DNA of 58,665 nt, counting the filler, from Dugesia japonica (Eukaryota): NCBI GenBank assembly GCA_001938525.1. It is 5 parts of 5 records of this genome, joined end to end, with 100 filler letters (N's around TTAATTAATTAA, not from the genome) between each part and the next. Parts side by side here need not be neighbours in the genome. Positions count along the whole stretch, not along the records: positions 46,942 to 58,665 come from MQRL01586495.1; 4 more parts are not named here. One strand, given 5' to 3'. Below the pieces are notes generated by a model. That model saw only the letters and a program-made list of their open reading frames with translations, had not been told where the DNA came from and did no database searches. The translations under genes were made by a program, and so were the position numbers. The stretch's first letter is position 1, and each line of letters opens with the position of its first letter. Below, in pieces: positions 9,381 to 58,665 of the stretch.

Positions 9381-9480
9381 NNNNNNNNNNNNNNNNNNNN
9401 NNNNNNNNNNNNNNNNNNNNNNNNTTAATTAATTAANNNNNNNNNNNNNNNNNNNNNNNNNNNNNNNNNNNNNNNNNNNN
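9381..9480. other. Artificial scaffold-joining spacer
   Basis: N44 + TTAATTAATTAA (stops in all six frames) + N44. Confidence 0.97.
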
Positions 9481-12800: not shown

Positions 12801-13329
12801 GTAAAGGTCGAGACAATTAAAATTTTACTTTAATAATCATTGTTAGAAAATATATTTGCTGATATATTAATCGTTACTTTTAATTATATTGATTTTATCG
12901 AATCTAACAAAAAGAAGTAGAAGAACGGTGATTCTACGTAAATTTGAATGAATAGAAAATATAAGAGGCAATTACCTTGGTGAATACAATGGAGGAATAC
13001 AGATAACACGTCGATGTAGTTAAGAGTTACACAGATGGCGAGGGTAACTTGTCAGAAATAATAATAACAGAAGACATTTAAAAGGAAACACGGTAAAGAA
13101 AATTTAGCAGTGTAAGTCGTTCCATAAATTTGGTCTTGCCAAAAGAAATTGTCGAAAGGAAGAAATTGTAGAATGTTGAACCTGTCGTAAAAATGGACAT
13201 AAATCTTAAATGATTTATTTTTAAAGTGAATTTAAATGCCAAAAATATTAACTAATATTTTTTAAAACAATAAAATATGGGAGAATATTTCTTTTTAGTG
13301 TTTGTCAAAAAAATAATTTTATAAAAATT

Positions 13330-15872: not shown

Positions 15873-16615
15873 TCAAGCTGGGCTTGGTGATTTTACTAAA
15901 CCAATATGTTTTCCTAATTTTAATGCTCGCTGTCGTAACATATCTTGAATCAATTGAAAACACATAGACAAAAGCACTAGTCCAAAGAACAAATATATTG
16001 CACAAATAATCGGCTTGCTCTCATTTTTCCATTGGGAATTCAATAAACCCGGGACTAAATCACCGAAACCAATTGTAGAGAATGTTATAAACACAAAATA
16101 ACAACTATTTAAGTACACCCAATTTTCCCAAAAACTGATTAACAAAGCGCCAACTAAAATATAAACAATAAATACACTCAATGGTAAAATTAATGGCAAT
16201 TCGCATTCGTCTTTACGATGAAGATTGTTCATAAAATCTCCAGTATCAATCGAAATAGTAAAATGAAGTTTTTTCTGCTTTTCTTCACTAGATTCCGTGA
16301 TTCGAGAGAGATTTGTTGAACCACTTGAAAGTAATAATAGATTTTTACCGATTAATTTATTATTCGGTACTGTAAATGATTTACTATCGTACTGGGATTG
16401 AGTTTCAGTTAATGATATTACCGATGCAGTTTTTGTCATCTGTCGTCTTCGACATTTCATCCGATTTCTTAAGCATTTATAAAATATTTTAAAGCCTTTT
16501 CCAAATAAAGAACCAAGATTAGTAAGACATAAAACCATCAGTGGTATTCCAAACATCGCATAAATAATTGTAGCTATTTTACCGTTATTAGTTTGCGGAA
16601 CAATATTCCCATATC
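15873..16615 (-). CDS. Terminal exon of a two-pore-domain (K2P/TWK-type) potassium channel
   Basis: Acceptor TTTCAG|GA splits the Gly codon that begins G-Y-G-N-I-V-P. M2 is IIYAMFGIPLMVL, the second pore is YFVFITFSTIGFGDLVPG, and M4 is IYLFFGLVLLSMCFQLIQ. Upstream exons were not found. Confidence 0.95.
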
Positions 16616-17444
16616 CTGAAATAAAAAGATCATGTAATTTACTTGTCGTTTTAAGCATGTTTCAATGATGACAACTAACAAAAAAATAATTAAAATTCGA
16701 TTATCTATTATCTATTATACAGAGTCTGTACGCTAATAATAACCTCACTTAATGAACCAAAATTTTTACTGGTTAGTCCAAATTGCCAAAAACATTGACT
16801 TAGCATTCATTCTCAATATAACAATAGAAATACTTCAACCATCCAGACACTGTTCATAAACTCAACTCTCTAGCTTATTTGCGAGATCTCCACACCTTCT
16901 TATCTATCCTCGAAATAAATTTTTGTTTCGTTTTATTAGCAATAAGAAATTTTTCTATTTCTTTCAAGTCTTCACAAAGGATTCACTTATTTTCTATTAA
17001 TCTATTTCCTTCTTTTTTTGCATAGCTTATAATTTAAATGCAGTGCTAAAGAATTTTATAGTATATTTGATTCAGAGGAAAAAGTATTAATGGTATAGTT
17101 AACTATTCTAAAATTCTTGAAATTATTAANGATTTATCATTGAAATTTCAATTTATTATAGTAAATATTTAAATTTATTTAAATATTATTAATATAATAA
17201 AATAATTACTACTTCCATTTCAAAATTTTAGTAGATATAATTAAGAAAACTAATATATTATTAATGAATATGATTCGCATAAATATTATTTTTGTAATTA
17301 TAAAATGAACAAGAGCCGCGGTTAATAGTCCAGAGAATACGGTAATTGAAGATTAATCAGAAACATTGAATTAAAACGTGTTTAAAACNNNNNNNNNNNN
17401 NNNNNNNNNNNNNNNNNNNNNNNNNNTTGTTAGTTAATTTTACA

Positions 17445-31800: not shown

Positions 31801-31813
31801 TATACTATAAAAA

Positions 31814-32479
31814 ATGAGTGAAGAGAAAAAAGTTGAAGTTAAAAAGGTTCTTTATCAAGCTAATTCAGCAGATTTATCTTTAGCATGTGTAACAAATATA
31901 ATGAATAATTTTAGTAGTTTTAAAAATTTAGATATAAATGAATTAATAGATTTATCAAAATGTGAAGGAACAAAAGAAATAGCAATACCAAAATTAGAGG
32001 CACTTAAACAATCTTATGAATTAATAGAAAAATTAGATGTTAATCAAAAAACTAAAAATTTCATTAAAGCAATTTCATCTCATTATATGGTTAAAGTTAC
32101 AAAAGATGAATGTAAAAGTTTATCGTTAGATCTTCTTGAAAAGAATTTTAACGAAGCTCTTGAACTTGCTGAATTTTATGAAAAAAAATTTACTGAAGCG
32201 CAAGAAGCTCATAACATAACTTTAAAGAAATATAATGAAACTCGAGTAAAAGTAAAACAACCAAGAATGGTTGAGTTTGACAATTATCTAATGAAATATA
32301 ATCCTGCAGAAAGAGAAGGAAAAAGAAATTATGTAAAGAATGAAGATATTACTAAATTACAACAAAAAATAATTAATGATAAAGAAGGAATTTTAAAACT
32401 TTATAAAAATAGATATAGTAAAGTACCCACAAAGGGAAGTGATTCTATTGCCAATGCTCATGTTAAATTAAAACAATAA
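31814..32479 (+). CDS. Hypothetical helical/coiled-coil protein of the Polinton-like element
   Basis: Intact 221-aa ORF in very AT-rich DNA. AAAATG start context, and the next ORF starts 2 nt after the stop. No family recognised. Confidence 0.7.
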   Translation: MSEEKKVEVKKVLYQANSADLSLACVTNIMNNFSSFKNLDINELIDLSKCEGTKEIAIPKLEALKQSYELIEKLDVNQKTKNFIKAISSHYMVKVTKDECKSLSLDLLEKNFNEALELAEFYEKKFTEAQEAHNITLKKYNETRVKVKQPRMVEFDNYLMKYNPAEREGKRNYVKNEDITKLQQKIINDKEGILKLYKNRYSKVPTKGSDSIANAHVKLKQ

Positions 32480-32481
32480 AA

Positions 32482-32748
32482 ATGGATACAGTTTTATATA
32501 AAATGTTAAGTGAATATAATTTTAAAGAAAACTCTATACAAAACTTTTGTAAAGTTAATAATGTTAATGAGAAAACTATTAAAAAATATTTAAAGAAATG
32601 GAACATTGAATATAACACTAGATCATGGGATCCATCTAGAAATTTACAAAGAAATTCACATGGAAGTTTTATTTCTTTAATTGATAGATTTGAAAAACAA
32701 CACCCAATTAAAAAATCAAATAATGGTAAAATTAATTATGAACAATAA
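32482..32748 (+). CDS. Small putative helix-turn-helix protein
   Basis: SIQNFCKVNNVNEKTIKKYLKKW fits an HTH pattern; identified by eye only. Confidence 0.5.
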   Translation: MDTVLYKMLSEYNFKENSIQNFCKVNNVNEKTIKKYLKKWNIEYNTRSWDPSRNLQRNSHGSFISLIDRFEKQHPIKKSNNGKINYEQ

Positions 32749-32954
32749 AATAAAGAGATTAAAAATATTAATGTAAAAAATAGTGGTGATAATAATTATG
32801 ATGATTTATTTTTAGAGTTGAAAAAAATATGTATGCAGTAACGTATTGTTTTATAGTACTGTTTATAGTTGTGATTTAGTACTGTTTATAGTTGTGATTT
32901 AGTAATACAACCTACAATAAAATATAACACTCTATTAAATTTTACATCTAATAA

Positions 32955-34254
32955 ATGATTACAATGTTAGATTTAGACAATAATATTGAATTTTCACATA
33001 CAGCGGTTAAAAATGATACATTAGTAATATCACCATCAGCAGGAACATTAAGTAAATTAAATTCAAGTGGAGACATAGTATTTCAATCTCTCCAATCTAC
33101 AAATCCACTTGATATCTGTAATTCATTATTATACTTTNNNNNNNNNNNNNNNNNNNNNNNNNNNNNNNNNNNNNNNNNNNNNNNNNNTTAGAAAATAACT
33201 TCTTTCCAAGTTTATTTAATTCATTAAGATTATTTTTAGGTTCATCTGAAATTGAATCAATTAATGATCCAGGTGTAATAAGTACAATGTTAAATTTTAT
33301 ATTTTCAACTGAAACAATAAAAAGGAATATGGACAATTATCAGGTTTGATGCCAGATATAAATAATGGAGATACAGATGTAAAAAATAATGGATATCAAA
33401 TTAGAATGAAACTTTATAACTCAGGTAAATTTGAAGGTTACTTTCCATTAAAAAACTTATTTGGATTCATGCAAAATTATAACAGACTTTTATATAATAC
33501 AGCAATAGAACTTAGATGTAATAGACAAATTGAAAATAATTTATTATGTTATGGTGATAAAGATGCAAAAGCTACTTTAGAATTAGATGCACTAGAATTT
33601 CACATACCAGAAGTAAGATTATTACCTAAAACAGAATTAATAATGTTAGAAAGAATATCAACAGAGAAATCAATTAAAGTTTCATATTTAAACAGAATAT
33701 GTGGTAAAACTAATTTAGAAGTCGGTCCTTTTTATTCAATTAAAATTGGTAGTTTAGCATATCAACCTAGATATATTTTAATTTGTTTTAAATCACCAAA
33801 TTCTTCATTAGAAACTAATGATAATCTATTTATACAGAAAGTTACAATAACTACAAAAGTCGAAGCAAAAGATGTACCAAAATCTAATTATCTTAAAGGT
33901 TTACAATTACAATTAAATAATACTAACTATCCAGCTAATGAATTAAAATTTGATATGTCTAAAAATGAAATGGCTCATCCTTATTTAAATTATATAAATT
34001 GTTGTCATGACTTTTTCATTGAACCACAATTATCATTATTAGATTTTGGTAATTTATATCCACTATTTTGTTTTGATACAANNNNNNNNNNNNNNNNNNN
34101 NNNNNNNNNNNNNNNNNNNNNNNNNNNNNNNNNNNNNNNNNNNNNNNNNNNNNNNNNNNNNNNNNNNNNNNNNNNNGAAGAAAAACATGTAGAGATGAAA
34201 CTTGCTAATAGTAAAGTTGTTATGATAGAAAATGTTAAAGGTCAAGATATTTAA
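32955..34254 (+). pseudogene. Double-jelly-roll major capsid protein (Polinton-type), with a frameshift near 33330 and N gaps
   Basis: LNSSGDIVF, NNFFPSLFNSLRLFLGSSEIESINDPG, FPLKNLFGFMQNYNRLL, PRYILICF, LNNTNYP and YPLFCFD are motifs typical of Polinton capsids. Confidence 0.8.
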
Positions 34255-34272
34255 TTATTTCCTCTTAAATAA

Positions 34273-35560
34273 ATGTCCTCTAAAAATAATTTTATATGTG
34301 ACAATTGTGGTAAAATTATTTTAAAAAAGAATAAATCCAGACATTTAGATTTATGTATAAATAGTGTAAAGCAAACTAAATCAAGTTTTATTAGAAAAGG
34401 TTTTAAAACCAATTACAACAGAAAAATATCCAGGTGAAAGACATTTATTTAAATATAATTACACTGGTCCTGGAACTAGATTAGATATTAGACTTGATGA
34501 AAATAATAATCCTAAATCTGGTGAAGAACCAATTAATAAAGTTGATGAATCTGCATTAAAACATGATATTGCTTATAATTCAGAAGATCTTAGAGATAGA
34601 CATATTGCTGATGTTAATTTAATACATGATCTAAATAATATCCCAAACCCAACATTAACAGAAAAGTTTCAAAGAGCTCTTGTAAAATTAGCTATGAAAG
34701 GTAAAATAATGATTGGTAAAGGTGGAACTAAAAAAGATCCATTTAAGAAAAGTACAATTATAAAAGATGAATCTGAAGATGAAACTAATGATAAAGAAAT
34801 ATTAAGTAAAGAACTACATAAAGAATATAGAAAACCTAAACATTTTAGAAAAGTAATTGTTTATGAAAAAGATGATATTTGGTCTGCTGATTTAATATTT
34901 CAAGGTATTGAATGTAAAGGTAAAAATGTAATACTAACATTTATAGATCTTTACACTAGATATGCATTTGTTGAACTTTAAAAAAGTAAGACTGGACAAG
35001 AAACAACAAAATCATTTGAAAGAATTTTAACTAAAAGTTTTAGAACTCCAAATAAATTATGGACTGATGAAGGATTAGAATTTTATAATTCATCATTTAA
35101 ATCTTTCTGTAAAAAAATGACATTCTTTTATATTCAACATTAAATCAAGGTAAAGCAGTTGTTATTGAAAGATTTAATCGCACATTTAAAAATAATCTCT
35201 TTCAACATTTTACTGCCGTTGGAAATCAAGATATCAATATTAAGTTATTAGAACAAATTGTTGATGATTACAATAACACAATACATTCATCAATTAATGT
35301 TACACCTCAACAAGCAACAAATAATCCAGAAAGTATTGAAATTGAAATACCAAAAGATTACAATCAAAATCTAAAATTTAAAATTGGTGATAGAGTTAGA
35401 ACTACTAAAATTGGAAAAACATTTCCTAAAGGTTATACATTTAAATGGACAAAAAGAATTTATGTTATTACTAAAATTTATCATGAACAACCTATAACAT
35501 TTCAAATCTCAAATCTTAACGGCAACAAAATATTGGGAAGATTATATAGTAATTACAAAA
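34273..35560 (+). pseudogene. Zinc finger / parvovirus-type phospholipase A2 / DDE integrase gene
   Basis: 34273: CDNC-x11-H-x3-C finger. The frame open from 34370 reads YNYTGPGT...PINKVDESALKHDIAY...RHIAD (PLA2) and runs without a stop into WSADL, TFIDLYTRYAF. After a stop at 34979 and a frameshift near 35115 it continues LWTDEGLEF, VIERFNRTFK, YNNTIHSSI and KFKIGDRVR (Maverick-type integrase). Confidence 0.9.
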
Positions 35561-35611
35561 AACTTCTTTATAAATTGTTAAATGTAAGATGTAAAATTTT
35601 ACATATAGAAA

Positions 35612-35830
35612 ATGGAAGATTTTAATAATTATTATCTTAATATTAATGATGATATTCAAGTAAAAGAATTAGAAGAAAAAATAGAAAATAAGAAAATAGA
35701 AATCTATAATTACAATTGTGAAATAAAAAAACAACATGCTATGAATGAATTAGAAGGATTATATGTAGATATGGAACAATTGATACATAATTTAACTTAC
35801 ACCCAATATTTATTAGATAAATATAAATGA
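35612..35830 (+). CDS. Small hypothetical coiled-coil ORF
   Basis: 72-aa ORF preceded by the shared upstream motif. Confidence 0.5.
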   Translation: MEDFNNYYLNINDDIQVKELEEKIENKKIEIYNYNCEIKKQHAMNELEGLYVDMEQLIHNLTYTQYLLDKYK

Positions 35831-35899
35831 ACTAACTCCAGTGAATGGGAATTTGTATTAGATAATGGATTAATGTGATTAAAATGTAAATATAGAAAA

Positions 35900-36085
35900 A
35901 TGATAGGTTTTTTTGATACTAGTGATAAAACTCAAAAAGATTTTGTTATTCTTGATGATGTTAATTGTATTGAAATTGTATTCTATCATATTGAAGATTA
36001 TTATGAAGAAATAGGTGAGCAATTAGTTTTAACAAATCATAATGATTATCTTTTAAGAAAATTAATAATTATTATTAATAATTAA
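35900..36085 (+). CDS. Small hypothetical ORF, paralogue of 36122-36343
   Basis: MIGFF...KDFVI...IEIVFYHIEDYYEEIGEQLVLTN aligns with the next ORF. Confidence 0.65.
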   Translation: MIGFFDTSDKTQKDFVILDDVNCIEIVFYHIEDYYEEIGEQLVLTNHNDYLLRKLIIIINN

Positions 36086-36121
36086 TAATTATTAATAATT
36101 ATTAAAATATAATTATAAGAA

Positions 36122-36343
36122 ATGATAGGTTATTTTGAATATTATAAAAAACAAAGAGATTTAGTTATTCGTAATGGTGATGATATTAGAATTATATTCT
36201 ATCATATTGAGGATTATGAAAAAGAAATTAGTAAAAAATTAGTTTTAGCAAATTTTGATGATAATACTTTAAGTAATTTAGTAAAAGATTTAATGAAAAA
36301 TTTGGATATAAAAATCAGCATTTTAGACCTTTACTTGAATTAG
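36122..36343 (+). CDS. Small hypothetical ORF, paralogue of 35900-36085
   Basis: MIGYF...RDLVI...IRIIFYHIEDYEKEISKKLVLAN. Confidence 0.65.
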   Translation: MIGYFEYYKKQRDLVIRNGDDIRIIFYHIEDYEKEISKKLVLANFDDNTLSNLVKDLMKNLDIKISILDLYLN

Positions 36344-41730: not shown

Positions 41731-42184
41731 CGTTAATCAGTCTAACGATTCTCCATAGTAAGAAGATTACCATCACAGAAATCTGATCTGAGTTCAACTG
41801 GACAAAAATTATATCAGCCATAAATGAAGTGACAATGATGGTTCCATCAAAAATCTTTAAATAAAAAAAATTAATAATTAATTTTTTTATTATCATGAAC
41901 AATTATTTTCACTTCTACTTTCTTTTTGAAAAACCTTTCACCAATAGACACAACTCTCATTATCAGTTCTATCATAAAAACCACCAATATTGCAATACTG
42001 ATGTAATGTAGATACAATCCAATATTGTGAAGAACAGTGGACCTATGTAAACTGTATTCTGAATTTGTTTTATGATCGGATGAATACGAATCTTTATGGT
42101 TATCATCAAGCTTGTCAGAATCTTGATGTGACCATTTCTTTGTAGTATGGAATGAAGTATTACACAACTGTAAAAGGATACTTT
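41731..42184 (-). CDS. HVCN1: Two exons (42184-41913, 41854-41731) of a voltage-gated proton channel (Hv/HVCN1 family), S1-S2 loop to S4
   Basis: LHYISIAILVVFMIELIMRV...FFKKKVE|IFDGTIIVTSFMADI...LLWRIVRLING matches Hv1 FHYMSITILVFFMMEIIFK...[22 protein letters not shown]...RLWRVARIING. The 58-nt GT-AG intron keeps the frame. The S1 and C-terminal exons were not located. Confidence 0.88.
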
Positions 42185-42299
42185 CTACAAATAATTTGTA
42201 TATTAATGTTGATTTACAATTTTTAAAATTATTAAAAGACAAATAAAATGAGAAATAAATGTATAATTATTAAATATTAAAAATTGAATTATTGATCAA

Positions 42300-44771: not shown

Positions 44772-45021
44772 CAGTGATGGGCAAACTTTCAAAAGCCGCG
44801 ACACATCTAAGTAAATTTTTAATGCAACCATAAACATTTATTTAAATTATTTTTGAAACAGTTATTAATAAATATATAATAATAAAAATCTTATTATTTT
44901 TTATGTCAAATTGAAAATCAATGCGATTAATGAGCTTGGCATTGTGTAGATTTTTTAATTATTGAAAACATTTCGTGACACACTAACATACTTGCTGCGA
45001 CACACCATTTCACTACCACTG
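44772..45021. mobile_element. Degenerate hAT (Buster-like) MITE
   Basis: Ends CAGTGATGGGCAAA and TTTCACTACCACTG. Flanks CTATACAT and ACATACAT match at 6 of 8 positions. GCGACAC occurs near both ends. Confidence 0.65.
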
Positions 45022-45204
45022 ACATACATTAAAATGTTATGTCAATTTAGCAGTTATGTTTGCAGTTCGATGAGATTTGTATAATTTTGACATTATTTTT
45101 GTTATTAACTCTTTCCGGTTCATTTGAGACCTTTAAATTATTTTTTCTTATGCAATCTGTATAGAGCCAATGTTATTTAACGTTTTCATTTCAGTTAAAC
45201 CCAT

Positions 45205-45776
45205 TGAAGTTAATGAAGAAAACATGAATGCATTAATTGAAGCAAATCGCCAAATCACGAATTGAGAAATTGCTTTGGGATTAAATTTGTCTTATTCAAC
45301 CGTTTATGGTCACAAGAAATTACTAGGTTTTGTTTCAAAGCTCAATAATTGGGTACCTCACCTTTTTATGAAACGAGATCTAATCTGTCGAATTGAGATC
45401 TTTGATTTGCTTAAAAAATAGTGAGATTGTAAGAGAATTATTCATTTTGAGTTTTATCAGATATTTCTACAATTGATTCGAAAGTGTACTGCAATCAACC
45501 TAACAAATGTTACCATAAAACAGAAAAGGTGCGGTGTTCCACCAAGATAATGTCAGACATCACATAGGTTTTGCTAGTCGTCAGAAGCTGTTACAACTCG
45601 GATAGGTTGCTTTGCCACACTCATCGTATTCGTCCGATTTAGCATCCATAGTCAAATACTTGTCTTCCTGGATCAGTTTTTCGCAAGTAAAGATCAGAAC
45701 TTCTATCACCACAGAATTATGTCACTAACAGAAAGATGGCAAAAGATGTTGGACCAAATAATTAGTATGTAATTTA
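45205..45776 (+). pseudogene. Internally deleted mariner transposase relic
   Basis: LNLSYSTVYGH...LGFVSKLNNWVPHL, VFHQDNVRHH, LPHSSYSSDLAS (cf. YSPDLAP) and LTERWQKMLDQN. Confidence 0.9.
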
Positions 45777-46630
45777 ATAAAATATATGAATGGTAAACAA
45801 AACTAAACAAAACAAAAAACGTTAAGTAAATGATATTAAAATATAAAGTCTTCATCTAAAACTATTCTATTTCATGTTTAGTTAAAAATCTCTTTTGGAT
45901 CCGGAAAATGAAATAAACTTCTGATAGTAGTTTGACATCACCTATAATTAATTATCCTATCAATTCCGTGTAATAAAATAGTATTTTTATTATTCTTAAA
46001 TATTACAAACTACTTTATCTACTAACAGGAAAAATAAAAATGTTAACAGAAAATATAATCAAATCAAATAAACCATTGCAGTACAAAGTAGGAAATCAGT
46101 TGATTGCTGAATAAAAAGTATTGCTGATATTAAAAAAAAGGAAAATTTCTGAGAATTCCAAAAAATTATTTATCAAAATTATGCGAAATTTGCAAAATGC
46201 ATATATAAAGAGAAGAAATATTTTCCTAGAGATATTAAATTAACAAAAATCACATCGAAGAATTGTCTAGGGATTATAANATTCAATAACAAACAACATT
46301 CCATGATCTTGGTTTATTTATTTTACAATTTGACAAGAGATAATTGCTGGGAAATTTTGGAAATTTTCTGATTGACTTGAAAATTGTTTATTTAATATTA
46401 TTTTTAAAAAATAAAATGTTTTCAAACATCAGTTTTCATATCTTAAAATTCGAGAAACAATATATTTTCCTTAGATTTAAAAAATAATAATTATAATAAA
46501 CTAATAATAAATTATAATAATTATTCTCAGATTTTTCTTAATAATAACAATTATATTAATAATAAAAATAATAATAATAATAACAATAATAATAATAATA
46601 ACTTTTAAACGCCATTTCAATATATATTTG

Positions 46631-46673
46631 TGCATTACATGTTTCGACAGCATAACTGTCATCTTCGGATACA
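46631..46673 (-). ncRNA. Minimal hammerhead-like motif with one core substitution
   Basis: Minus strand UGUAU-CCGAAGA-U-GACAG(UUAUG)CUGUC-GAAA-CAUG-UA-AUGCA: 5-bp stem II, palindromic ACAUGU, GUA triplet. U4 of the core is replaced by C. Confidence 0.65.
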
Positions 46674-46841
46674 ATAATAATTCTTTTTATGAAAATTCTT
46701 TATTTAAACAATATTTATTTCTTTTAAAAAAAAATTATTATACATAAAAAATTCTGATTATGTAAAAAATTATGCAATCTCTCTAATCAATCAAATTAAT
46801 TAAAAACATTCAATAAAGATTTAGAAAGACCAGTTTGAACA

Positions 46842-46941
46842 NNNNNNNNNNNNNNNNNNNNNNNNNNNNNNNNNNNNNNNNNNNNTTAATTAATTAANNN
46901 NNNNNNNNNNNNNNNNNNNNNNNNNNNNNNNNNNNNNNNNN
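46842..46941. other. Artificial scaffold-joining spacer
   Basis: N44 + TTAATTAATTAA + N44. Confidence 0.97.
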
Positions 46942-48429
46942 TTCTAGTTGTAAGATTTTAATATGTTTTACAACACTTGAAACTAAATATCTTTTATAAA
47001 TCGATTTGGGTTTTAATTAATTTAGATTTTGTAACAATATCCTACTAACAATCATTGAAATTAATAAAAAGATTTGATATTCTTCATTTTAAAACTACAC
47101 CTGTGAATACTTATATTTTATTTTCAAAAACTTTTGATTTTATAAATGTGTAATTTACTGTTGACAAAATAAAGTTCTCATTTGTTGTAAATATGAAAAG
47201 GAGTATATTATTTGCTTTATTATTAATTAGCTTTATCTTTATTTATATTTATTTAATCTTAAAACTTGGTAACGTCAAAGATTTATAAATTACGAAATTA
47301 TTTATGAAAATAGTAGGTGGTAAGCTAGGAAATCAACGGATGATATGAAAATAAGACTATTATAAGAAATTAGTAAATTGAAAGTAATATGAAAACCGGG
47401 TAAAATCAGGAAGTAAAATCGATAAAATTTATTATTTTATATTTTCAGAGATCATGTCGAGATATCCACGAAAATCATCACAGAGCTTACAACCAGGAAG
47501 ATAAACTACAGGAAGATACTATAAAGGAATATAAATTAAAGGAAGATAATCAGGAAGAAAATTAAGGAAGCTAATCAGGAAGAAAATTTCAGGAAGATAT
47601 TAGGAAGAATATTCAGTCATACTTATTACGGATGCAGTTATGGGAAATAGGGATCCCCAACTGGTAAGCTACAATCAGAAGATTGATCACCTTTGTAGAA
47701 AGTAACCGCAGCAGTTGTCTAATGACTATAACTGAAGAAGTAATTGGGTATTATTGGATTTGTGATATAATTTAGAAAGCCTGCGTATGGGAGGGAAAAC
47801 CTCGGAAGATATTAACGGAAGCCTGCACAAGGAAGGAAGATACGTGAAGTCCTAAGCACATTAACCAGTATGTTAAAGGAAGGCCACGTAATTAAGCACA
47901 CTAAAAGAAGCCTGATTAGAGGAAGAATTAAAGGAAGCCGGAAGCGTTTGCCTGCACGAAAAGAGTATTCCAAACGGGGCCGCCGATCCCTCAGAAAGCT
48001 CTCGGTACTCCCCCAGGAAGAATTATTAAAAGTGTGCATTGTNNNNNNNNNNNNNNNNNNNNNNNNNNNNNNNNNNNNNNNNNNNNNNNNNNAAACGGGG
48101 CCGCCGATCCCTCAGAAAGCTCTCGGTACTCCCCCAGGAAGAATTATTAAAAGTGTGCATTGTTACACCGGCATATCAAAAGGAAGAAAAGGAAGAAAGC
48201 CAGAAGAGTTCGCCTATACTACAGAAAAATGGGTACTCCTACATTTAGGAAGAGATAACCTGGCGTTAATTAGAAAAAAAGGAAGTATTACAGGAAGATT
48301 AAAGGAAAGCTTAATTAAGGAAAACGGAAAAAGAGAAAATTTAAGGAAGATGGTTGTGGGGCTATGATGACAAGTATAGAGCAGCATGGTATTAAAGTAA
48401 GTTTAAAAAAACAGGAAGAGGAGTAATTG

Positions 48430-48923
48430 TCTCCTAAATAAAGACAATTAGAAGTAAATTTTACTAATTTTACTAATCGGAAACAGCAAATGGGAGAAAC
48501 CCCACAAGCATATATGAAGGAACTTAAGAGGCGTGGTAAATTGGCCTTAAGAGACAAGCTGGCAGATAGTCAAGTACTCGCTATCTTTTTAAACGGAATA
48601 CGAGACGAGAATGCCAAACTAATGGTAACACTGAGTAAGCCCGTGACACTACAGGATGCTCTGTCCACGTTGTGAATTGTAGTCGATAGACCGTCGGAAC
48701 GAATATTTAAAGTAGAGGGACAAACAGAAGAAACTACACCACGAATATCAGATTTCATACCTAATACACAATCAATGAGGAAAACCCTGACCCCAGGGCA
48801 AGAACGGAACAACCTAAATGATAGATCTAATTATCCCAGAGGGAATGGTGGAGGATTCAATGCACTTGGAATAATTGGCAAAATAATCGAGATATACAAT
48901 GCAATACCTGTGGAAGAAGGGGA
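48430..48923 (+). pseudogene. gag: gag (capsid C-terminal region and start of the zinc knuckle)
   Basis: RKQQMGETPQAYMKELKR...AIFLNGIRD...KPVTLQDAL, then IQCNTCGRRG at 48894-48923 running into an N gap. Confidence 0.85.
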
Positions 48924-49139
48924 NNNNNNNNNNNNNNNNNNNNNNNNNNNNNNNNNNNNNNNNNNNNNNNNNNNNNNNNNNNNNNNNNNNNNNNNNNNNN
49001 NNNNNNNNNNNNNNNNNNNNNNNNNNNNNNNNNNNNNNNNNNNNNNNNNNNNNNNNNNNNNNNNNNNNNNNCAAAAGAATGTCAAAACGGGAATCAAACA
49101 AATTATAATCGGAATCCGAATACAAATCTGGATAATCTA

Positions 49140-52100
49140 ATGCAAGAAAATGAAAGATTAAGACAACGAGTAAATCAAAACAAGGGACAAGTCAATTTAG
49201 TACATCAAAATACTTTCGACAATGTGTATCACAAGGTGCAACAGGAAAACGATTGGCTCAAGTGGCAAAACCAAGACTTGCAGGTACAGCAGGAGAGACT
49301 GGCCAAAAGGAACTTGTTAAACGAACCACATAAGAATCAGTGTAATATGGTTAGGACACACAGGCAGATTTATAATCAACATGACGAAACAATAGAAGTC
49401 ACCAAAACGGAAGATACGCGAAAACGAATATTTATCACGTCACCGGAATTCGAGTGGACCGAAGAGATCATCTATAAAACAATAAAAACGTCAGTAACAA
49501 CCACCGGTAGAAGAAGAGTGATGAACCAGTTACTTCAATTATATCAGCACCCACAAGTACACGCAAAGGTAAAAGCTAACTGGCAAAAAACAATATCGGA
49601 TTATATCGCCGAGCTGTATAAAGAAACCCAGTTAGACGATTATGAGTTTGAAATTCAATATGTATGGCATAACAACCCGGAAGTCATTTTAAAACGGCTA
49701 AAATTACACCTAAAAAGTACGACACTTGAAAGGAGCACTTAGCGAAATAAAATGGGATAAAGTAAACCCGTCCCTCGAATCACCACCATTTAACGAGCAG
49801 CAGCAATGGAATGGGAAGTGGATTAAGCACCGATTGCAACTAGGGAATATAGGAATCAATATTCTTCCCGATGACAAGAACCTAATTTATTACGGGGCAC
49901 GACCTCATGAAACTACAGTAATCAAATTGATAAATTGGGATTTGGTATCCCGAGCATAAATGGTAATCCAAGAAATAGAAACAGACGAGTTATATCATAA
50001 TCTCGAAGAAACATTCCTAAAGAAAATAGTTCCCCTCCAGGCTCAAAACTACATGCGTAAAAGATTGGGAAAAATAAGGCTAATAGACTATCCAGAATTG
50101 GAACAAGCCGAAGCGTCACGGTTATCCTTAGCCCGAATTGATGAGATACAGGTAGCAGCTCAGAAACTCCATGATACGATAAAGAAAGAAGTATACCTAA
50201 AGTTGACAAATCAATTGGTTGAATTATTGGAAGTTATACAACTGATCACCGAGTGCGAAAGCGATTGGACAGAATGGTTACCAGTGCATTATGAGTGGGT
50301 AATATCCAACATGGGATTATCAGATTACCAAGTATGGCTATATAACCCGGAAGGAAATATGAAACTGACGCTCACAAGATTAATGGTAGAGGATCTAGAA
50401 GCGGCGTTTAATCAAGCCGGTTATCCATGCATAACCGATAAATATGTATGCACTCCAAGTGCTATCGTAGATTTTAATGCCGGAAAGAAACATCTATATG
50501 ATTTTGGAGTAAAACCAGGAGAGGACATTGAAATCGTAGTATTGGACAAACACCATGGTATCAACTACGACATCTGGATAACAAAATCCGGACGATCAGC
50601 TTTAGAAATCATGGGAGAAATGGAGTATCTATATAAACAAGGGGTAGAGCCGATTAAAATCAAAATAATTTCCACTGTACTCGGGAAGAAGGATAAACTG
50701 ACAAAGGAGGAGAGGAAGCAGTTATTAATGACGCATAATGATTTTCTCAAACAACGATTAGAGAGAAGAGAAGGCAATTGCAACATGATAAGAATGTGGC
50801 AAATGCCATCAAGAGAAGTGGTAGCAATGCGAAAAGTGGAAGAAATGGTTCACCGAGTACAGATAGAGAGGGAGAAGTTCCCTCAAGAGACCTATTGGAT
50901 GATAATGAATAGAATCTACGACATATATGACGGACTAGAAATACCGGAGGAAATCGAGAACCAGTCGCTCATGATTAAACAAAAGTATGCCGAAGAAATA
51001 TTGGCGACTACAAAAATTCAAGATTATAAATTATATTTAAATATCGGGGAAAATGAACAGGAAGTGACTAAATATAGTCGATTTAAACCACAAGGAATAA
51101 CCATGATGGATTTAANNNNNNNNNNNNNNNNNNNNNNNNNNNNNNNNNNNNNNNNNNNNNNNNNNNNNNNNNNNNNNNNNNNNNNNGTTGAGACCGACGA
51201 CGAGGACAAACACATATTTCAATGCCACGCAAAGCCCGGAGAAATATGTGAGTTAGATATAGACGAGGAGCCGCGGACGGATCAATCACCGGATCTCAAG
51301 GAGCAAATGGAAGAGATAACAGAACTATACGTATCCGAAGTATTGTCCGGCATAAAGGAACACGTAAAAGAAAGTCAGAAAATACAGAATATTGATAACT
51401 TGCCAATAACCACCACCAAATCAGTTGTATTTCCGGAAGGGACGCCAACAATACGCGATATTGGGGTGAACTACACAAAACCGATAACCGAGGAATCCGC
51501 TACGTTTCACGCTATCAACAACCTATTAAGAGTAACACGAGAAACTCGACCAGTCGTGAATATCAAAGTATATTGGAAGATGACGAATAACTTACGGAAT
51601 TTGGCAATCTATGGACAACTCAGCTTGTGGGCTCAAGCACAATGGTGGAAAGAGATAACCTTATACGAAGATGAAGTACAAAATACATCCACCATATCCG
51701 ACTATTCTATTAGAGTCAGCCTCCTTAATAAAAAGGGAAGCATAAAAAAGGTAGATATGATAACGCTGGAAGGATTAACGGTCAACCATATCATAAAACC
51801 AATCAAGAAATGGCTATGGCCAAAATCGCTCAAGTCTTATAAAATGGAGGCAGGAGCAACAATGATCATATTAGCAGAGAAGGAGGATCACATCTTCTTA
51901 CATGATATCAAACCAGGAGAGATCACAGAAATAAAATTAACACCACGTAAAATGACCATCGACATCCCGATACCAAAAACACCGGATACCGACCAACTCA
52001 TATTCAATATGATGAGCCTATATCTACAAGAAATACTACCAGTAGAGAATGAACGACTTATAAACACTTATGGAGAAAACAAAGTCCAGGTAAACATGGT

Positions 52101-54650
52101 TCGGGATAATGACCATGACACCACAGATCTAACATCAGATGAAGAGGAGCTGGAGGAAGAAATCTCGGAGGATATTGGCCAACCCCGGTTGTTACCATTT
52201 AAACATAAATTCGCTGGTCCTTTCAGCTCCCATCAGGCAGAGCAGATATCGAAGATAATATCTGATTTCTGTAATTTCCAGGAAAGTATACCTAGGGCAG
52301 CATTTTGGAAAGCATTAAATTTACTAATGGATCTGGCAAAATATACTGAAATAGCAAAGGAAGAATGTGCCAAATAGGAGTCAGTAATCAAGTTGTATGT
52401 TGGTGCAGTGAAAACAAGTGCCAGAGGAGAAGACTTTCAAGTCACGATATCTGAGGAAAGAACCAGAATTGGCTGTCATTCACATACCACATTGAGATTT
52501 ACTATAAAGTTTGAAGGAAAACAACATTTAATGGACGCAGGATTGAGACTCGGAGAAAATACATTTCTTCAAATACAGAAACCAGAGGATTGCATCCCAG
52601 GACCATTAAAATCTATGAAGGAAGTAATACAGCAACTAGAGGAGTTGTACGAACAAGAAATCAACAATGATAAGTTATTTGAAGAAGTCAACAATAGAAC
52701 AATGGAGATAAATATTGAGTTATGGGAAGACAGTAAAACATGAGGAAGTCTGGCGCGAGTAATAATGAAAATACTCTTAACCTTGGAAGAAAACTTGGAA
52801 CTATTAAGACATGACAAAGTCATTCAATTAGTTCTAAAGCTAAATCAATTACGAGCTATAAGTCAAATGCCTGAAGACATAATGGATGCAATATTAAATA
52901 AAGCAGTTCGAATGATAACCAATGAAGCCGTCACGGTAACAATCAGATTTCCCGACGAAAGTGAAATTCGTTGGCAGGTCCAAATGAACGAACCATGGGC
53001 TAAGTTGCAGAAGAAGATTGTAAAATTTATGAATCAACAACGTAGCCTTAACGAGGAGAAAACTAGAGTGCAAACATCAGTTCAGGAAGACGACATAGTA
53101 CTCTATTACAACCACGTAATAGAATCAGACCAAATGAGATTGCCAGTAAAATATATGGGGGTTTGACCAGGTACTAAATTAAAATTTTATGTAACATCAA
53201 GGGAGGAGAAGAGACGACGCCTACGGGTCTCGGAGGAAAAATGAAAGCAGGAAGCTAGGGAATTAGTGGAATATTACATAGAAGAAATAAATCCATTAAT
53301 ATTCACTAGAGCCAAGCTCCCTAAACAAGAGCAAAATAAACAACGAGTAGAGATGGTAGCAGCTCCGACTAACACCCCGGTCAAAGACGAGAAACCGGAA
53401 GACAATATACCGAAATTGTTTGAATTACTGGTAGGCGATAAGTTAATAAAACCGGAAATCATACGACGATGCAATATAGCCTTACAACAAGATCTAGCCG
53501 TAGAAGATCTTAGAAAATTGCGACGAGTAATACTAGCCATCAAAGTAGCACATGTATGAGATCCAGTTCAGTTCAGTAAGATTCCGGTTAAATGGCGGAA
53601 AGCAGAGATGGGCCAGACCACGCCATTAGAAGTCAAATTCAGAATAATCGATCCAGAGGGGGATAAAGTCACAATTAGGATACCAGTATATAATACAATC
53701 AAGCACCTACGGGATAAGCTACCATTTAAGCCACCATACAAACTCTTGGGTGAAGATGGAATAGTGGAAGATACCACTCCGATTGAACTGATGAAAATAG
53801 ATTTAGTTAAACCTAATACGTTGTGGATTTTTCCCGAATTGGGAGGTACTCTCACTCGTAAAGACGCAGATCCTTTTGAAGCAGTAGATAAAACCAGACC
53901 AATAATGGGAGAGGCCTCAGGTATGTTAAAAGCATATAAACACCGCACATAACTAGCGGCTAGTCAAATATTAAGACCTACAACCGATCAATCAGGAAGT
54001 GCAGAAGCATCCCGAGAAACTAAAGAAACTCCTAAAACAAGCCAAGATTGGGATCATTGAAACAAAAACGATTAACGACATCCATAAATCATCAAACTAA
54101 GCGATTAGCAACGGTATCACAAGAGAGATACCACGAAAAATCGACAGATGATGACATACCAACCGAATTAGTAATACGGCAGTTACTGCTAATGTTGTAT
54201 CCGGAATTAAAAATATGGATTGGGAAATTTCAACTATCAGATAATCTCAGACCACTGGCAAAGAAATAGAAGCAGCCATTAAGAAATTCCCTGCCATTAA
54301 AGGTACTAGTCTTTGTACCAGAGATAATTTTGAAGGAGTCATGGACGAATTATTACAAGATCAGCCAGCCAAGGATAGTAGTATCCATAACACATCTGAT
54401 TAATCAAACACATCTATCAATCGCAAGAAGCAAGCCGTCAAAAAATTTCATTCTAGGTAAACTACCAATAGTGGATCTAATGCAGAACAAGATAGTGCCG
54501 TTAATAAAACAGCATGGGGGATGGAAAAAGTTCATTGAGGCTATATGCCCTAAACCTCAGCCATCTCATGAAAATGCAACTAGAGTAATCAGGATTGTCC
54601 GGGATCAGTTAAATGAGATCGAGAATGGATGGACACGCGGGCCCCGCCAA
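49140..54650 (+). pseudogene. Accessory polyprotein region: ubiquitin/SUMO-like repeats, possible CARD-like domains, Bcl-2-like domain
   Basis: ORFs from 49726 to 53952 share one reading frame and are separated only by stop codons. Repeated DY...KPGE units, a UBL ending LWIFPELGG, and IKQHGGWKKF. Confidence 0.65.
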
Positions 54651-54656
54651 AATTCA

Positions 54657-55100
54657 TGGCAAGCGTTAACCACTACAATACTCTTGTTATTCTTAATGAT
54701 GGGCAGAGGTGAAGCCATACTAGCATACGATTGCGATGGAATGCAAGTTGGGAAAGAGGTATTCTCATTAGTGGATACAGAGGAATGTCCAGATGCAAAC
54801 CCGGAAAATATCTCACTCCGTAACAATTCCATTTATCATCTATATCAGGAGTCAGATTATTATAAGGCCCAAATACGCGAATGTACGGTAACGGTAAAAA
54901 CGTTCATATTTCATTGCGGATAACATAGTTATACATCAATAATCGACCCAAAAACGGTGAGACATCCGGTACATTAGCAATGGCGGTTACAAACCCCGAT
55001 AGTGTCACTTCACTACTCCCGTTGGAAAAAGGACAATTCGGTCGAGTGGTCGGAGAAGTAATGTACCTATACAAATGCAAAGCCATAGATGCTGAGTTCT
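54657..55100 (+). pseudogene. env: Internally deleted chuvirus-type envelope glycoprotein
   Basis: Signal peptide TTTILLLFLMMGRGEA, then ILAYDC...FSLVDTEEC...HLYQ...ECTVTVKTFIFHCG*HS. In another frame: LAMAVTNPD...GQFGRVVGEVMYLYKCKAID. Confidence 0.75.
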
Positions 55101-55379
55101 CGTCTAAAAGGAGAAAGCACACCAGCACCAGTACAAATGTATTATAACGCCTATCCGCAGCATGGTTGGCCACCCATGAACCAACAACCCTAACAAGTAT
55201 GGGCACCAGGTCCCATGTACAACAATCCGTATATAAGCCCGCCACAAGCCCCGAATATGGCGCTATTAACAGGAAGCAATATATCAATTATGGACCGAAG
55301 AGTAATCGAGCAAAACTTGCGCGCTCCAAATAACCCAATTACTGAGTATGATAAGTTAGAAACACAGACTGTATGTATG

Positions 55380-55730
55380 ATGATTTCCCAGAAAGCAAAA
55401 TTATTACAGAAAAGGATAAAGATCGACGGAAGATGGGTAATAGCTATTATCGATACAGGAGCAAGTACAACGCTAGTCCAAAAAAGAAAATTAGAAGATT
55501 ATCGACTACTTAGAATAACAATAACTAAAGGAGTTATCATCACTGCCTCCGGAGAAAAAATCTCACCCTAGGGAGAAGCAATATGCGCAATAGAAAGCAA
55601 CGGAACCCGGCTCTGGCATAAACTGCAAATAATGAACGAATTAACATTCGACTGTCTATTGGGGTTGGACCTCTTGTCACGCCTTTGTCCGGAGGGAATA
55701 TTGGATTTGAGAGAACTAACGATACGGGAA
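55380..55730 (+). pseudogene. First retropepsin-like aspartic protease
   Basis: IKIDGRWVIAIIDTGASTTLV...ITASGEKI and FDCLLGLDLL, with one in-frame stop at 55569. Confidence 0.88.
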
Positions 55731-56027
55731 AATTACGATCAGGAGTATGCCCCGGTAGGGTATCAGAGAACTCGAATAATAACCAAACAGAAACGACCAC
55801 AACACTGGAATCAGCCAACACCCAACCGGCTGCAGCAACGCTCAACGGGCCGAAACGAACAAAATAACTCGAATCAAGATTGTCGGAAAATCACTCATAC
55901 AGCCACCATGATAAGGGACGATTGGATAAGGTTTCAAGAACGAGAACCAAGATGAAAAAACCAATCAAAATCAAACCCCAGTCATAACCCTTCAGATGTA
56001 GTATGCACAAGCCTCAACGGCGGACCA

Positions 56028-58573
56028 ATGCTAACCATTATGGTTAAAATAAACGGCCGACACATAACAGCCCTATTGGACACAGGAGCAACCAAATCGT
56101 TGCTGCCAATAGATGAAATTGCGATAACCGATTACAAAAACATATTACCTACGAACACTATAGTGGATGTGGCAAATGGTAGTAGCCTCAAGATTTTTGG
56201 AGAATTAGCCTGTGAAGTCGAATATCAGGATAACAAAATTAAACACAATATGATCATAGTAAAAATGATGGAACAGTGTATACTAGGAACAGACATTCTT
56301 CCCGTCCTGATGAAAAACGTTATATTAAACTTCTCAACATTACGGTTACAATCATTGGAGGGGTATGCCCATGTGAAAGATCAGGAAGTATTCACCACAG
56401 AAAAAATCTTGGTGCCTAGTAGATGTCAAGTATATTGTGTAGTCAGTACCAAAAGTGCATATAAAGGAGATTGTTATTTCGAACCGTATGACGGATTTGC
56501 ACACCAGTACGAGCTACCCACAGCAGGAGGAATAACCACGGTCAACAAAAGTGGGGAAGTACCAGTTAGTTTGATCAACTTCACGGAAAAAGATATCAAA
56601 ATCAAACCTAACTCTAGGATGGGTACACTAACCCCCATCGAACCAGAGCCCGACGGGATAGAAGAAGTAGTCGCTGAACCGGAAATCGACAGAACGTTTA
56701 AAGTAGAGACGGAAACTTTGTCGGAGGGTCAGAAACAAGCAATACTGCAACTGCTGGAGGAATTTAGAGACATTTTTGCATGGACTGATGAAAATTTGGG
56801 TATGTGCACAGCGACAAGGCACACAATTCCACTAACAGACGAAACGCCATGCAAACAGAAGCCATATGCCATGACGGTAGAGAAAAAAGAGTTTGCAAAT
56901 AAGGAAACGGCCAAATTAGTAAAAATTGGGGAAATAGAACCTAGCTGCTCACCGTGGCAGTCACCAGTGGTAATGGTCGATAAAAAAGATGGGACACAGC
57001 GATTCTGTATCAATTACAGAAGACTGAATGCCCAGACTAAGAAAGACACTTATCAATTGCCAGATATCAATGAACTATTGCAACTGTTGTGTAACGCTAA
57101 AATATTTATCACGCTGGATTTGCGAAGCGGTTACTGGCAAATAGAAATCAAACCAGAAGATAGAAAGAAAACCGCCTTTTCTACAGGCAAAATTTGTATC
57201 AGTTCATCCGTATGCCATTCGGACTTACTAATGCACCAGCCTCATTCCAACGAATGATGAATTACGTAACTCACGGCATATCTCAATGTATAGCCTATAT
57301 CGATGATATACTAATCTTTTTGCCAACCTTTGAAGGGCACCTAAATGACTTGCGTAGTGTGTTTGTACGATTACGTAAAAGGAATCTAAAAGTGAAACCC
57401 ACCAAATGCGAATGGGCCAAGAATAAAGTAACATATTTAGGTCATTTAATATCGGATAAAGGAAAAGAGCCCGATCCACGAAATACCGAGAAGATACGAA
57501 ATCTAGCACCGCCAAATTGCGTGCTCAAAATACAAGAATTTCTCGGTCTCGCGAACTATTATCGATAATTCATTAAGGATTTCACTAAAATTGCGAAGCC
57601 GATGCAGGAACTGGTCAAACAAGATACTGCCTTTATATGGGGGCTGGAACAACAACAGTCATTTGAAACATTACGAGACAAATTATTAACTGCACCAATT
57701 CTGGTACACCCAGATTTCAAGAAGCCATTTATATTAGCCACTGACGCTAGTGGATACGCGATGGGTGCAGTTTTGAGCCAACTAGATGAACAAGGAAGAG
57801 AACGAGTAATTGCATATTTTAGCAAGAAATTTTAAGGAGCAGATTTAAATTACAGCACAACAGAACGAGAGATAATGGCTATTGTGAAAGCCACTAAACA
57901 TTTTCGATCACTTATACATGGTCACGAGGTGGTAATCTATACGGACCACTTACCAATTACGTTCATGGCGCAGAAACCATTACGATGGAATAGAATGGCC
58001 AAGTGGTAACTGGCAATGCAGGATTATTGTCCTCTGTTAAAGTTTAAAACGGGTAAAGCAAACTCAAATGCTGACTGCCTGTCCAGAATCGGTGGACCGG
58101 AAACTACGGAGAATGCACCAGAAAGTACAGAAACGTTCATATTGCTAGAATTATAGGAGAAAAAAGTAGGAATGGTATATTTCATACTAGCGGAAGATAG
58201 AAATTTTGATGGACTAAAGCAAGCACAGGCTGATGATGATGAGATAAAGATCATTATGAAATACATGGAAAATTACAATTTAGAAAAGTTAGAATGTGAA
58301 CTTAAGATGAAGGAACACCTAAAGAAAAATGGTGGTTGGTATGCACTTACCAAAGGATGGTTGACAGTGTTAGCTATCACTAAAGCAAGGCGGGATAAAA
58401 TACTTGAACAATATAACAATGGAGTACTCGTTGGACACATGTCTCACAAGAAAACCGAATTCAAGTTAAGACAGAAATATTACTGGCCACATATGACGGA
58501 ATCTGTGAAGGAATGGATTGATAAATGCCAAATATGTGCTGCCAGGAGAGAAACGGGCTTTCCTCTTGATTGA
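56028..58573 (+). pseudogene. pol: pol: second protease, RT, RNase H and integrase zinc finger (disrupted, truncated)
   Basis: ALLDTGATKS...CILGTDIL; SPWQSPVVMVDKKDG, LDLRSGYWQI, RMPFGLTNAPASFQR, YIDDILI; ATDASGYAMGAVLSQ; GHMSHKKT...YYWPHM...CQIC. Several frameshifts and stops; the integrase core is absent. Confidence 0.97.
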
Positions 58574-58665
58574 TAAAGGTACTCAGACAAGCCGCTCCTG
58601 AGTTATCATATCTACTAATTTGTTGCCTTTAATAAATTATTTTGTTTGCATCTTCTATAATTTGT

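Follow-up and report, generated by a model that had tools for sequence, protein, structure and literature searches.

The locus described here raises the question of how a chuvirus-type fusion glycoprotein (env) came to lie upstream of the protease (PR) in a Ty3/Gypsy element of Dugesia japonica, and whether this arrangement is a new one. The window, by which we mean the whole stretch of 58,665 nucleotides that was analysed, carries in its last part what we take, with a probability of about 85%, to be a fossil Burro-like GAG-ENV-POL Ty3/Gypsy element, of a kind known from planarians. The feature named in the original prediction is real, was correctly seen and was largely correctly interpreted, but it is a decayed copy of a kind that has already been described.

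The gaps filled with the TTAATTAATTAA spacer at 9381, 22632, 36524 and 46842 are artificial joins, and the sequences flanking them may not be neighbours. The element, the parts of which are collected in Table 1, has a GC content of 0.39–0.43 and a positive AT skew (a strong A skew), compared with a GC content of 0.25 and no skew in positions 1–47300. No LTR pair or long direct repeats were found in 45000–58665, where the copy is truncated at its 3' side near the end of the window. Neither a PBS nor a target-site duplication was found for the element copy, and no tRNA genes were found. Two identical 71-nt copies (47972–48042 and 48093–48163) flank an N gap, and they are probably an assembly overlap.

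Table 1. Recognised parts of the element, with positions counted along the window
Feature	Positions	Strand	Basis
Decayed, probably Burro-like Ty3/Gypsy internal region	47400..58550, limits approximate	+	Composition, domain order; 3' end stops before integrase core
Gag remnant	48460..48923	+	Two-sequence Gag profile
Long polyprotein region without assigned domain	49960..53559	+	One frame with stops (frame track)
Possible ubiquitin/SUMO-like domain, lead only	53563..53865	+	Similarity to P0003, Atlas
Bcl-2-like domain remnant, BH1-like to BH2-like part	54330..54539	+	Relatives-only profile
Internal signal peptide	54660..54716	+	Hydrophobicity, -3/-1 residues; cleavage inferred
Env fragment 1, class III ectodomain start	54717..54974	+	PF24664, relatives profile
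Env fragment 2, central helix end and following strands	54971..55105	+	PF24664, profile, P0010 similarity
Aspartic protease 1, IDTG at 55449, broken by stop	55416..55660	+	gag-asp_proteas E 4.5e-5
Aspartic protease 2, LDTG at 56076	56037..56303	+	gag-asp_proteas E 7.6e-8, RVP E 1.5e-7
dUTPase-like domain between PR and RT	56436..56621	+	PF00692 E 1.4e-4, 22.1 bits, cut-off 22
RT and RNase H, with stops	56979..58006	+	RVT_1 E 7.9e-10, 3.8e-21; RT_RNaseH_2 E 3.8e-24
Integrase H2C2 zinc-binding domain	58379..58549	+	Integrase_H2C2 E 2.1e-16

The carrier had been assigned to Ty3/Gypsy, and the Pol region agrees with this. Its domain order, PR-RT-RH-IN, fits Ty3/Gypsy (Metaviridae), with IN represented by its H2C2 part only, and the best of the eight PDB matches of the RT was the yeast Ty3 RT (E 2.6e-20), with the caulimovirus and foamy virus enzymes ranking behind it. 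The RT has a frame change near 57170 and its YIDD motif at 57296. The integrase catalytic core is absent after the H2C2 domain, and the matches to the relatives P0006 and P0036 end at about 58550. From 49960 to 58570, the copy is read in five tracks, with a change of frame between each and the next and 14 stops in all. The element copy is dead, every part of it being broken by stops and frame changes.

Upstream of Pol, the remains are fainter. A Gag profile built from P0008 and P0045 matched 48460–48630 (E 1.4e-4; reversed control, E 12), and no Pfam family matched the remnant. At 48900, a CxxC is cut off by an N gap; judged by eye, it may start a zinc knuckle. The N-terminal Gag with CCHC knuckles that is a Burro trait may be represented here by the profile match, its knuckle region falling in the gap. 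The long region that follows gave no significant Pfam match, and its first part, 49960–51114, gave no Atlas match. The possible ubiquitin/SUMO-like domain showed 27% identity to residues 15–117 of P0003 (E 6.5e-4), and its named Atlas matches were Rad60-SLD/ubiquitin (0.85–0.87); it gave no Pfam match, and a four-sequence profile was not significant. A second SUMO-like pattern was seen by eye at 52921–53202, where Pfam gave no ubiquitin-family match.

The env remnants of this copy bear out the observations from which the original prediction set out. All four cysteine motifs were found where it had placed them, AYDC at 54723, SLVDTEEC at 54765, HCG*HS at 54912 (with the stop at 54921) and GEVMYLYKC at 55052, the last one in a different frame from the other three, and the hydrophobic stretch just before AYDC reached a Kyte-Doolittle 11-mer value of 2.37. 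An HMM search of the kind that it had proposed for both fragments matched fragment 1 to positions 5–87 of the 653 of PF24664 (Monjiviricetes_fusion; E 1.1e-12, 47.2 bits, cut-off 27) and fragment 2 to positions 348–392 (E 0.0053), a match that falls short of the cut-off. A profile of 10 full-length relatives, from which the window was excluded, gave stronger matches, at positions 3–108 for fragment 1 (54654–54974; E 9.2e-33) and at positions 369–413 of 625 for fragment 2 (54971–55105; E 8.6e-13), while the best match of the reversed window had an E of 1. Fragment 2 was 69% identical to P0010 over 35 aa.

Two large deletions had been claimed, near 54975 and after about 55100, and the spacing in the relatives supports both. 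The distance from xYDC to GEV was 356–376 aa in all 10 relatives compared with about 110 codons in the window copy, so that about 250–265 residues were lost between the fragments by the first deletion, near 54972. From GEV to the first protease DTG, the distance was 315–558 aa in the 7 of the 10 relatives that reach a protease, compared with about 132 codons here. The second deletion, near 55105, removed at least 180 residues and with them the TM helix and what else followed in the ectodomain. The window env thus has no TM segment and lacks about 70% of its length.

The env was claimed to be a chuvirus-like glycoprotein, and this identification stands on the PF24664 match above the cut-off and on the predicted structure of a relative. 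The gB-like fold is that of the env of the relative P0011 (AlphaFold model, mean pLDDT 66.5) and not of the deleted window copy. Searched against the PDB, this model had herpes gB as its best match (E 1.9e-12), with 116 matches at E ≤ 0.001. Against predicted viral structures, the best matches were chuvirus and chu-like glycoproteins, at their top the G of Tacheng tick virus 4 (A0A0B5KJV8; E 4.1e-40, 21% identity). PDB sequence searches with env fragment 1 and with the env alignment as queries gave no relevant match. The env is a class III fusion glycoprotein of the chuvirus/gB type, and its family is only distantly related to real chuvirus G, with an identity of 17–21%. The likeness to the G of Jingchuvirales thus consists of the best structural matches to the P0011 model and of common cysteine motifs, whereas that G is encoded by a stand-alone viral gene and the env here is part of a retroelement polyprotein.

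The relatives also show how the env is placed in working elements. An exhaustive search with env fragment 1 gave 44 protein matches, and a word-index search with the same fragment found nothing among 22 candidates. Pfam was run on 22 of the 44 matches, picked for length or context. Six of these 22 (P0006, P0010, P0023, P0027, P0034 and P0036) had env and then an aspartic protease in one ORF, and three of the six ran on through RT, RNase H and integrase in the same ORF. The env also precedes the protease in P0045 and P0167, and a CCHC knuckle lies ahead of env in P0008 and P0027. P0043, in which env follows the BEL/Pao marker DUF5641, was the sole BEL-type match, and env after a Gypsy integrase was found in none of the 22 scanned relatives. 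Because intact relatives keep the order in single ORFs, we consider env before PR to be a trait of the family and no accident of the window copy. It was also predicted that the env lies in frame before PR-RT; the single ORFs of the intact relatives uphold this for the family, but it cannot be read from the window copy because fragment 2 is in another frame and the five tracks hold stops.

These findings bear on the possibility that a chuvirus-derived endogenous viral fragment was inserted by chance into an ordinary Gypsy copy. It is reported that chuvirus glycoprotein fragments often adjoin Gypsy fragments without true capture (PMC10084718, in the part available to us), and the AT skew of the env segment, 0.13, is below the 0.22–0.33 of its neighbours; its GC content of 0.41, however, matches that of the element. 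Moreover, env fragment 1 is in one frame with the Bcl-2-like domain ahead of it, a domain that stands before env in several relatives too (below), and the nearest homologues are element-borne, whereas chuvirus G is as distant from the family as stated above. The original prediction had itself asked whether the segment might be a separate insertion with its own boundaries. No common 6–8-mer flanks it, and in intact relatives a single ORF holds env ahead of PR-RT-RH-IN, which argues that the env is no separate insertion. Chance insertion is thereby largely refuted, and we regard it as extremely improbable.

Three further parts, which had been missed before, identify the element: the Bcl-2-like domain, the second protease and the dUTPase-like domain. 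The Bcl-2-like domain was recognised with a profile made from the relatives only, which matched 54360–54539 (E 8.5e-6; reversed control, E 2.4), and the window piece scored up to 27.9 bits compared with at most 6.2 bits in shuffled sequences (198 reported out of 200 made). With the window row included, the family profile matched Bcl-xL (E 1.7e-4). The remnant has QHGGW at about 54510 and a frame change near the domain start. The window piece alone had no direct Pfam match, and P0030 alone did not match Bcl-2 in the PDB. For a model of P0016 (mean pLDDT 51), Bcl-2-fold proteins filled the first 33 rows at middling scores (best Z 7.2), and Foldseek gave no match at E 0.001 (best E 0.036). The domain lies ahead of env in 8 of the 20 relatives with enough upstream sequence and is absent in 12; 7 of these 8 were tested by leave-one-out. 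The members that bear it are not clustered in the env tree (153 of 500 shuffles were as low).

Tandem aspartic proteases are likewise not peculiar to the window, which has two; they occur in P0010, P0027, P0034, P0036 and P0167, with up to four in P0027. P0036 has one further protease after the integrase, and P0006 and P0023 have a single one. Extra hydrophobic segments were seen after the integrase in P0006 (2254–2568), P0036 (2485–2738) and P0023 (2775–3197). In P0006 and P0036, this part looks like a signal peptide, a small ectodomain (fibronectin-III-like by eye) and a TM helix, an apparent second membrane protein in the same ORF. P0023 (110–290) and P0033 (1–150) have a similar-looking domain before env, and their env sequences lie on opposite sides of the tree. 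This domain gave no Pfam match, and by eye we take it to resemble a DEDD-type nuclease. In P0013 and P0007, an env fragment is joined to host domains (MRP-L47 and FAD-oxidase C), and these are most likely gene-prediction chimeras.

The arrangement had been called unusual; that it is undescribed is not supported, since it is in print both for Burro (PMC6431247) and, with the order GAG-ENV-POL, for elements from Nematoda, Bryozoa and Platyhelminthes (PMC13524379). PMC10084718 found, in its accessible part, no clear glycoprotein capture by Gypsy in arthropods, and the feature could therefore look new. In the available text of PMC6431247, the env of planarian Burro is placed in frame between a BCL2-like domain and PR, in the order BCL2-env-PR-dUTPase-RT. 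Of these traits, the BCL2-like domain directly before env was found here through the profile of the relatives and the dUTPase-like domain between PR and RT at the Pfam cut-off. Burro (GYPSM1) and the window element have in common one long ORF, Gag, the BCL2-like domain, env, PR, a dUTPase-like domain and RT, perhaps also a Ubi2/SUMO-like domain before BCL2, which is a lead only here, and the 4,873–5,140 aa of Burro fit the about 3,700 codons that remain here. Decayed Burro copies with stops and frameshifts are described as well, as here (PMC6431247). On the basis of domain order and the published descriptions, we conclude that the element works like, and probably is, a Burro-related GAG-ENV-POL element.

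There are also differences. The Burro env was called homologous to gypsy (F-type) Env by HHpred, with mononegavirus matches too (PMC6431247), whereas the env here is class III by fold. The window copy has two proteases, and tandem proteases are not mentioned for Burro in the part of PMC6431247 available. No LTRs or downstream ORFs are present in the window, unlike in Burro, which has LTRs and exceeds 25 kb (PMC6431247). MATH_TRAF, BIR, RING and ankyrin modules vary between Burro families in that account; no MATH, BIR, RING or ankyrin was found in the upstream frames of the window, where the sequence is decayed and gapped, and the downstream ORFs would lie outside the window.

The available part of PMC13524379 reports that Ty3/gypsy elements of nematodes, bryozoans and flatworms carry a gB-type env in GAG-ENV-POL order, and that chuvirus-like glycoproteins also adjoin gypsy pol in 114 arthropod elements. 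Its main text does not use the word 'polyprotein', and its figures may show such a layout. Its Platyhelminthes C1a errantiviruses share with the window element a Ty3/Gypsy Pol and a gB-type env between gag and pol; they are intact, of about 14.5–18 kb with flanks, whereas the window copy is broken. The motif YQE at the start of domain I, which the window has, occurs at that place only in six Schmidtea rows of its env table; these are 6 of the 11 YQE occurrences, the other 5 lying elsewhere in the sequences. Counted by eye, 20 of 38 residues are common to the window and Smed_errantivirus_5, and P0013 and P0007 are, by eye, nearly the same as Smed_errantivirus_1. As to the C1a cysteine-bridge configuration, most of domains I–II is deleted here; by eye, the 38 residues left are similar to those of the C1a rows. 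The likeness to the Schmidtea rows makes a planarian host likely.

Among other known elements, certain non-canonical metaviruses of nematodes, in which an RNA-virus glycoprotein was captured (Sacco et al. 2022, doi 10.1099/jgv.0.001739, as cited by PMC13524379), share the flipped order of env and pol in a Metaviridae element, but the nematode env rows in the table of PMC13524379 are without the domain I start motif of the window. The BEL/Pao element Anakin (PMC7642597, accessible part) has a glycoprotein of the same superfamily, PF24664; its Pol is of BEL/Pao type with env after the integrase, whereas the window element has a Ty3-type Pol with env before PR. Troyka (PMC12440569) and Cer1 (PMC10309623) were dropped from the comparison, as nothing in the available parts of these sources pointed to env before PR.

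A tree of 66 env residues from 41 sequences, 5 of the 46 being left out, places the window in a group with 35 others that include all members with env before PR and all Bcl-2-bearing ones. A long branch with support of 100/99 separates them from five rows, one of which is the BEL-associated P0043, and this argues against derivation from an Anakin-type env. With 10 of its 37 inner branches starred, the tree resolves the deep split only; its rows were chosen by similarity to the window, which is a bias, it holds no named Jingchuvirales sequence and its root is arbitrary. An independent env capture, which had been proposed, is not established, and PMC13524379 describes the env association as probably ancient and argues for ancient co-divergence.

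The same data bear on whether the element could belong to a separate, undescribed GAG-ENV-POL Ty3/Gypsy lineage from a host other than a planarian, a lineage that would have captured its chuvirus-like glycoprotein independently. The env group does lie apart from the BEL-associated env, several accessory domains of Burro were not detected in the window, and GAG-ENV-POL elements are reported not to be monophyletic (PMC13524379). Nevertheless, the Bcl-2-like domain, env, PR, dUTPase-like domain and RT follow one another as published for Burro. The start of the env is like that of the Schmidtea rows; it is unlike the remaining rows with YQE and unlike the three BEL rows from mosquitoes, which are without the motif (PMC13524379), and the matches that are near-identical by eye to a Schmidtea element share the 36-row group of the window. 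We consider a separate lineage improbable and retain the Burro-like reading. As a discovery, the feature has little weight, since the architecture is in print and the copy is a fossil. The analysis ties the in-frame env after BCL2 of Burro to the gB-type GAG-ENV-POL elements, it indicates that the env of this family is of class III, and it adds sequence evidence on how the env is released.

The release of the env by signal peptidase had been suggested, and an internal signal peptide is conserved in the family. Of the 46 sequences, 12 were skipped; all 34 that could be scored, among them that of the window, have a hydrophobic h-region immediately ahead of xYDC, compared with 27 of 484 control windows. 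In 35 of 41 homologues, small residues satisfy the -3/-1 rule for a cut placed two residues ahead of xYDC, the next best offset reaching 12 of 41, and in the window copy the cleavage is predicted after G-E-A, at the same distance from AYDC. Beyond the ectodomain, all 11 relatives that reach so far have a TM segment, with a second weak segment in one of them. Judged from these sequences, the predicted release of env by the host signal peptidase is well supported.

From what was observed, namely the domain order, the single ORF of the relatives, the env fold of one relative and the conserved signal and TM segments, the following processing model can be put forward. In working relatives, one ORF encodes Gag, then accessory domains (in this element a Bcl-2-like and possibly a ubiquitin-like one), an internal signal, a class III ectodomain of the gB/chuvirus type and one TM helix, and continues with one or more proteases, a dUTPase-like domain, RT, RNase H and integrase. 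Gag and the accessory domains would be cytosolic, the internal signal would thread the env ectodomain into the ER lumen and the host signal peptidase would free its N-terminus. The TM helix would then stop the transfer, so that Pol would stay cytosolic, and the element protease would cut Pol from the env tail. This would yield enveloped particles that can fuse with other cells. The window copy is capable of none of these steps.

It is also conceivable that the order is real but that the Gag-Pol polyprotein is not the source of env, which would come from a message of its own, spliced or started internally. From a single ORF, the same quantity of Gag, Env and Pol would be made, an uncommon situation among LTR elements that favours a separate env message. 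In several homologues, a Met lies near the hydrophobic stretch, and Cer1, a single-ORF element, is reported to make a spliced product (PMC10309623, accessible part). On the other hand, diverse relatives have a frame that stays open through the signal, ectodomain, TM segment and Pol, and with its single TM helix the product has the topology that a polyprotein needs. We judge the separate message unlikely, somewhat less so than a separate lineage, and the two routes are not mutually exclusive.

If the env is released from the polyprotein, its cleaved signal might have a second use, staying behind as the C-terminal anchor of the Gag-side chain. The Bcl-2-like domain would then become a tail-anchored membrane protein, like cellular Bcl-2, and Gag would be held at the same membrane as env. 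The position ahead of the signal would be a swappable cargo bay, as suggested by the Bcl-2-like domain being present in some relatives and absent in others. The family also multiplies its proteases (1 to 4 before RT), some members apparently adding a second signal-plus-TM protein after the integrase. This dual use, with its cargo bay, extra proteases and membrane protein, is tentative, and we hold it to be rather doubtful as a whole. If true, the retroelement would be an enveloped one, organised in the manner of a flavivirus or alphavirus polyprotein, with budding coupled to the control of host cell death. A signal that anchors the Bcl-2-like domain would explain the exact position of this domain and offer a testable route to effects on stem-cell survival; Burro1 is reported to protect stem cells via its BIR/RING region (cited in PMC13465017, available part). 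No paper stating such a use was found in the literature searched, and Sacco 2022, Lee 2026 (Dev Cell) and Grohme 2018 may cover it. The remaining novelty may lie in the processing model, above all in the signal peptide as the tail anchor of the Bcl-2-like domain.

Elsewhere in the window, several other sequences were recognised. A host gene that contains WD40 and RCC1 repeats and is presumably HERC1-like has exons in 2383–9436, and a fragment of a hAT transposase lies inside this gene at 6965–7402. An exon at 41871–42266 (-) resembles, by eye, a voltage-sensor/Hv1 segment and gave no Pfam match, and an exon of a host two-pore potassium channel (K2P) lies at 15873–16661 (-), its best matches reaching 39–40%. 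A second Gypsy remnant with an integrase zinc finger and core, at 28–33% to P0006, was found at 11997–12826 (+). A Polinton/adintovirus-like remnant at 31811–36343 has a double jelly-roll capsid-like ORF (PF21738, E 1.2e-15), a phospholipase A2-like ORF (PF08398, E 8.2e-10) and a weak integrase similarity at 34916–35307.
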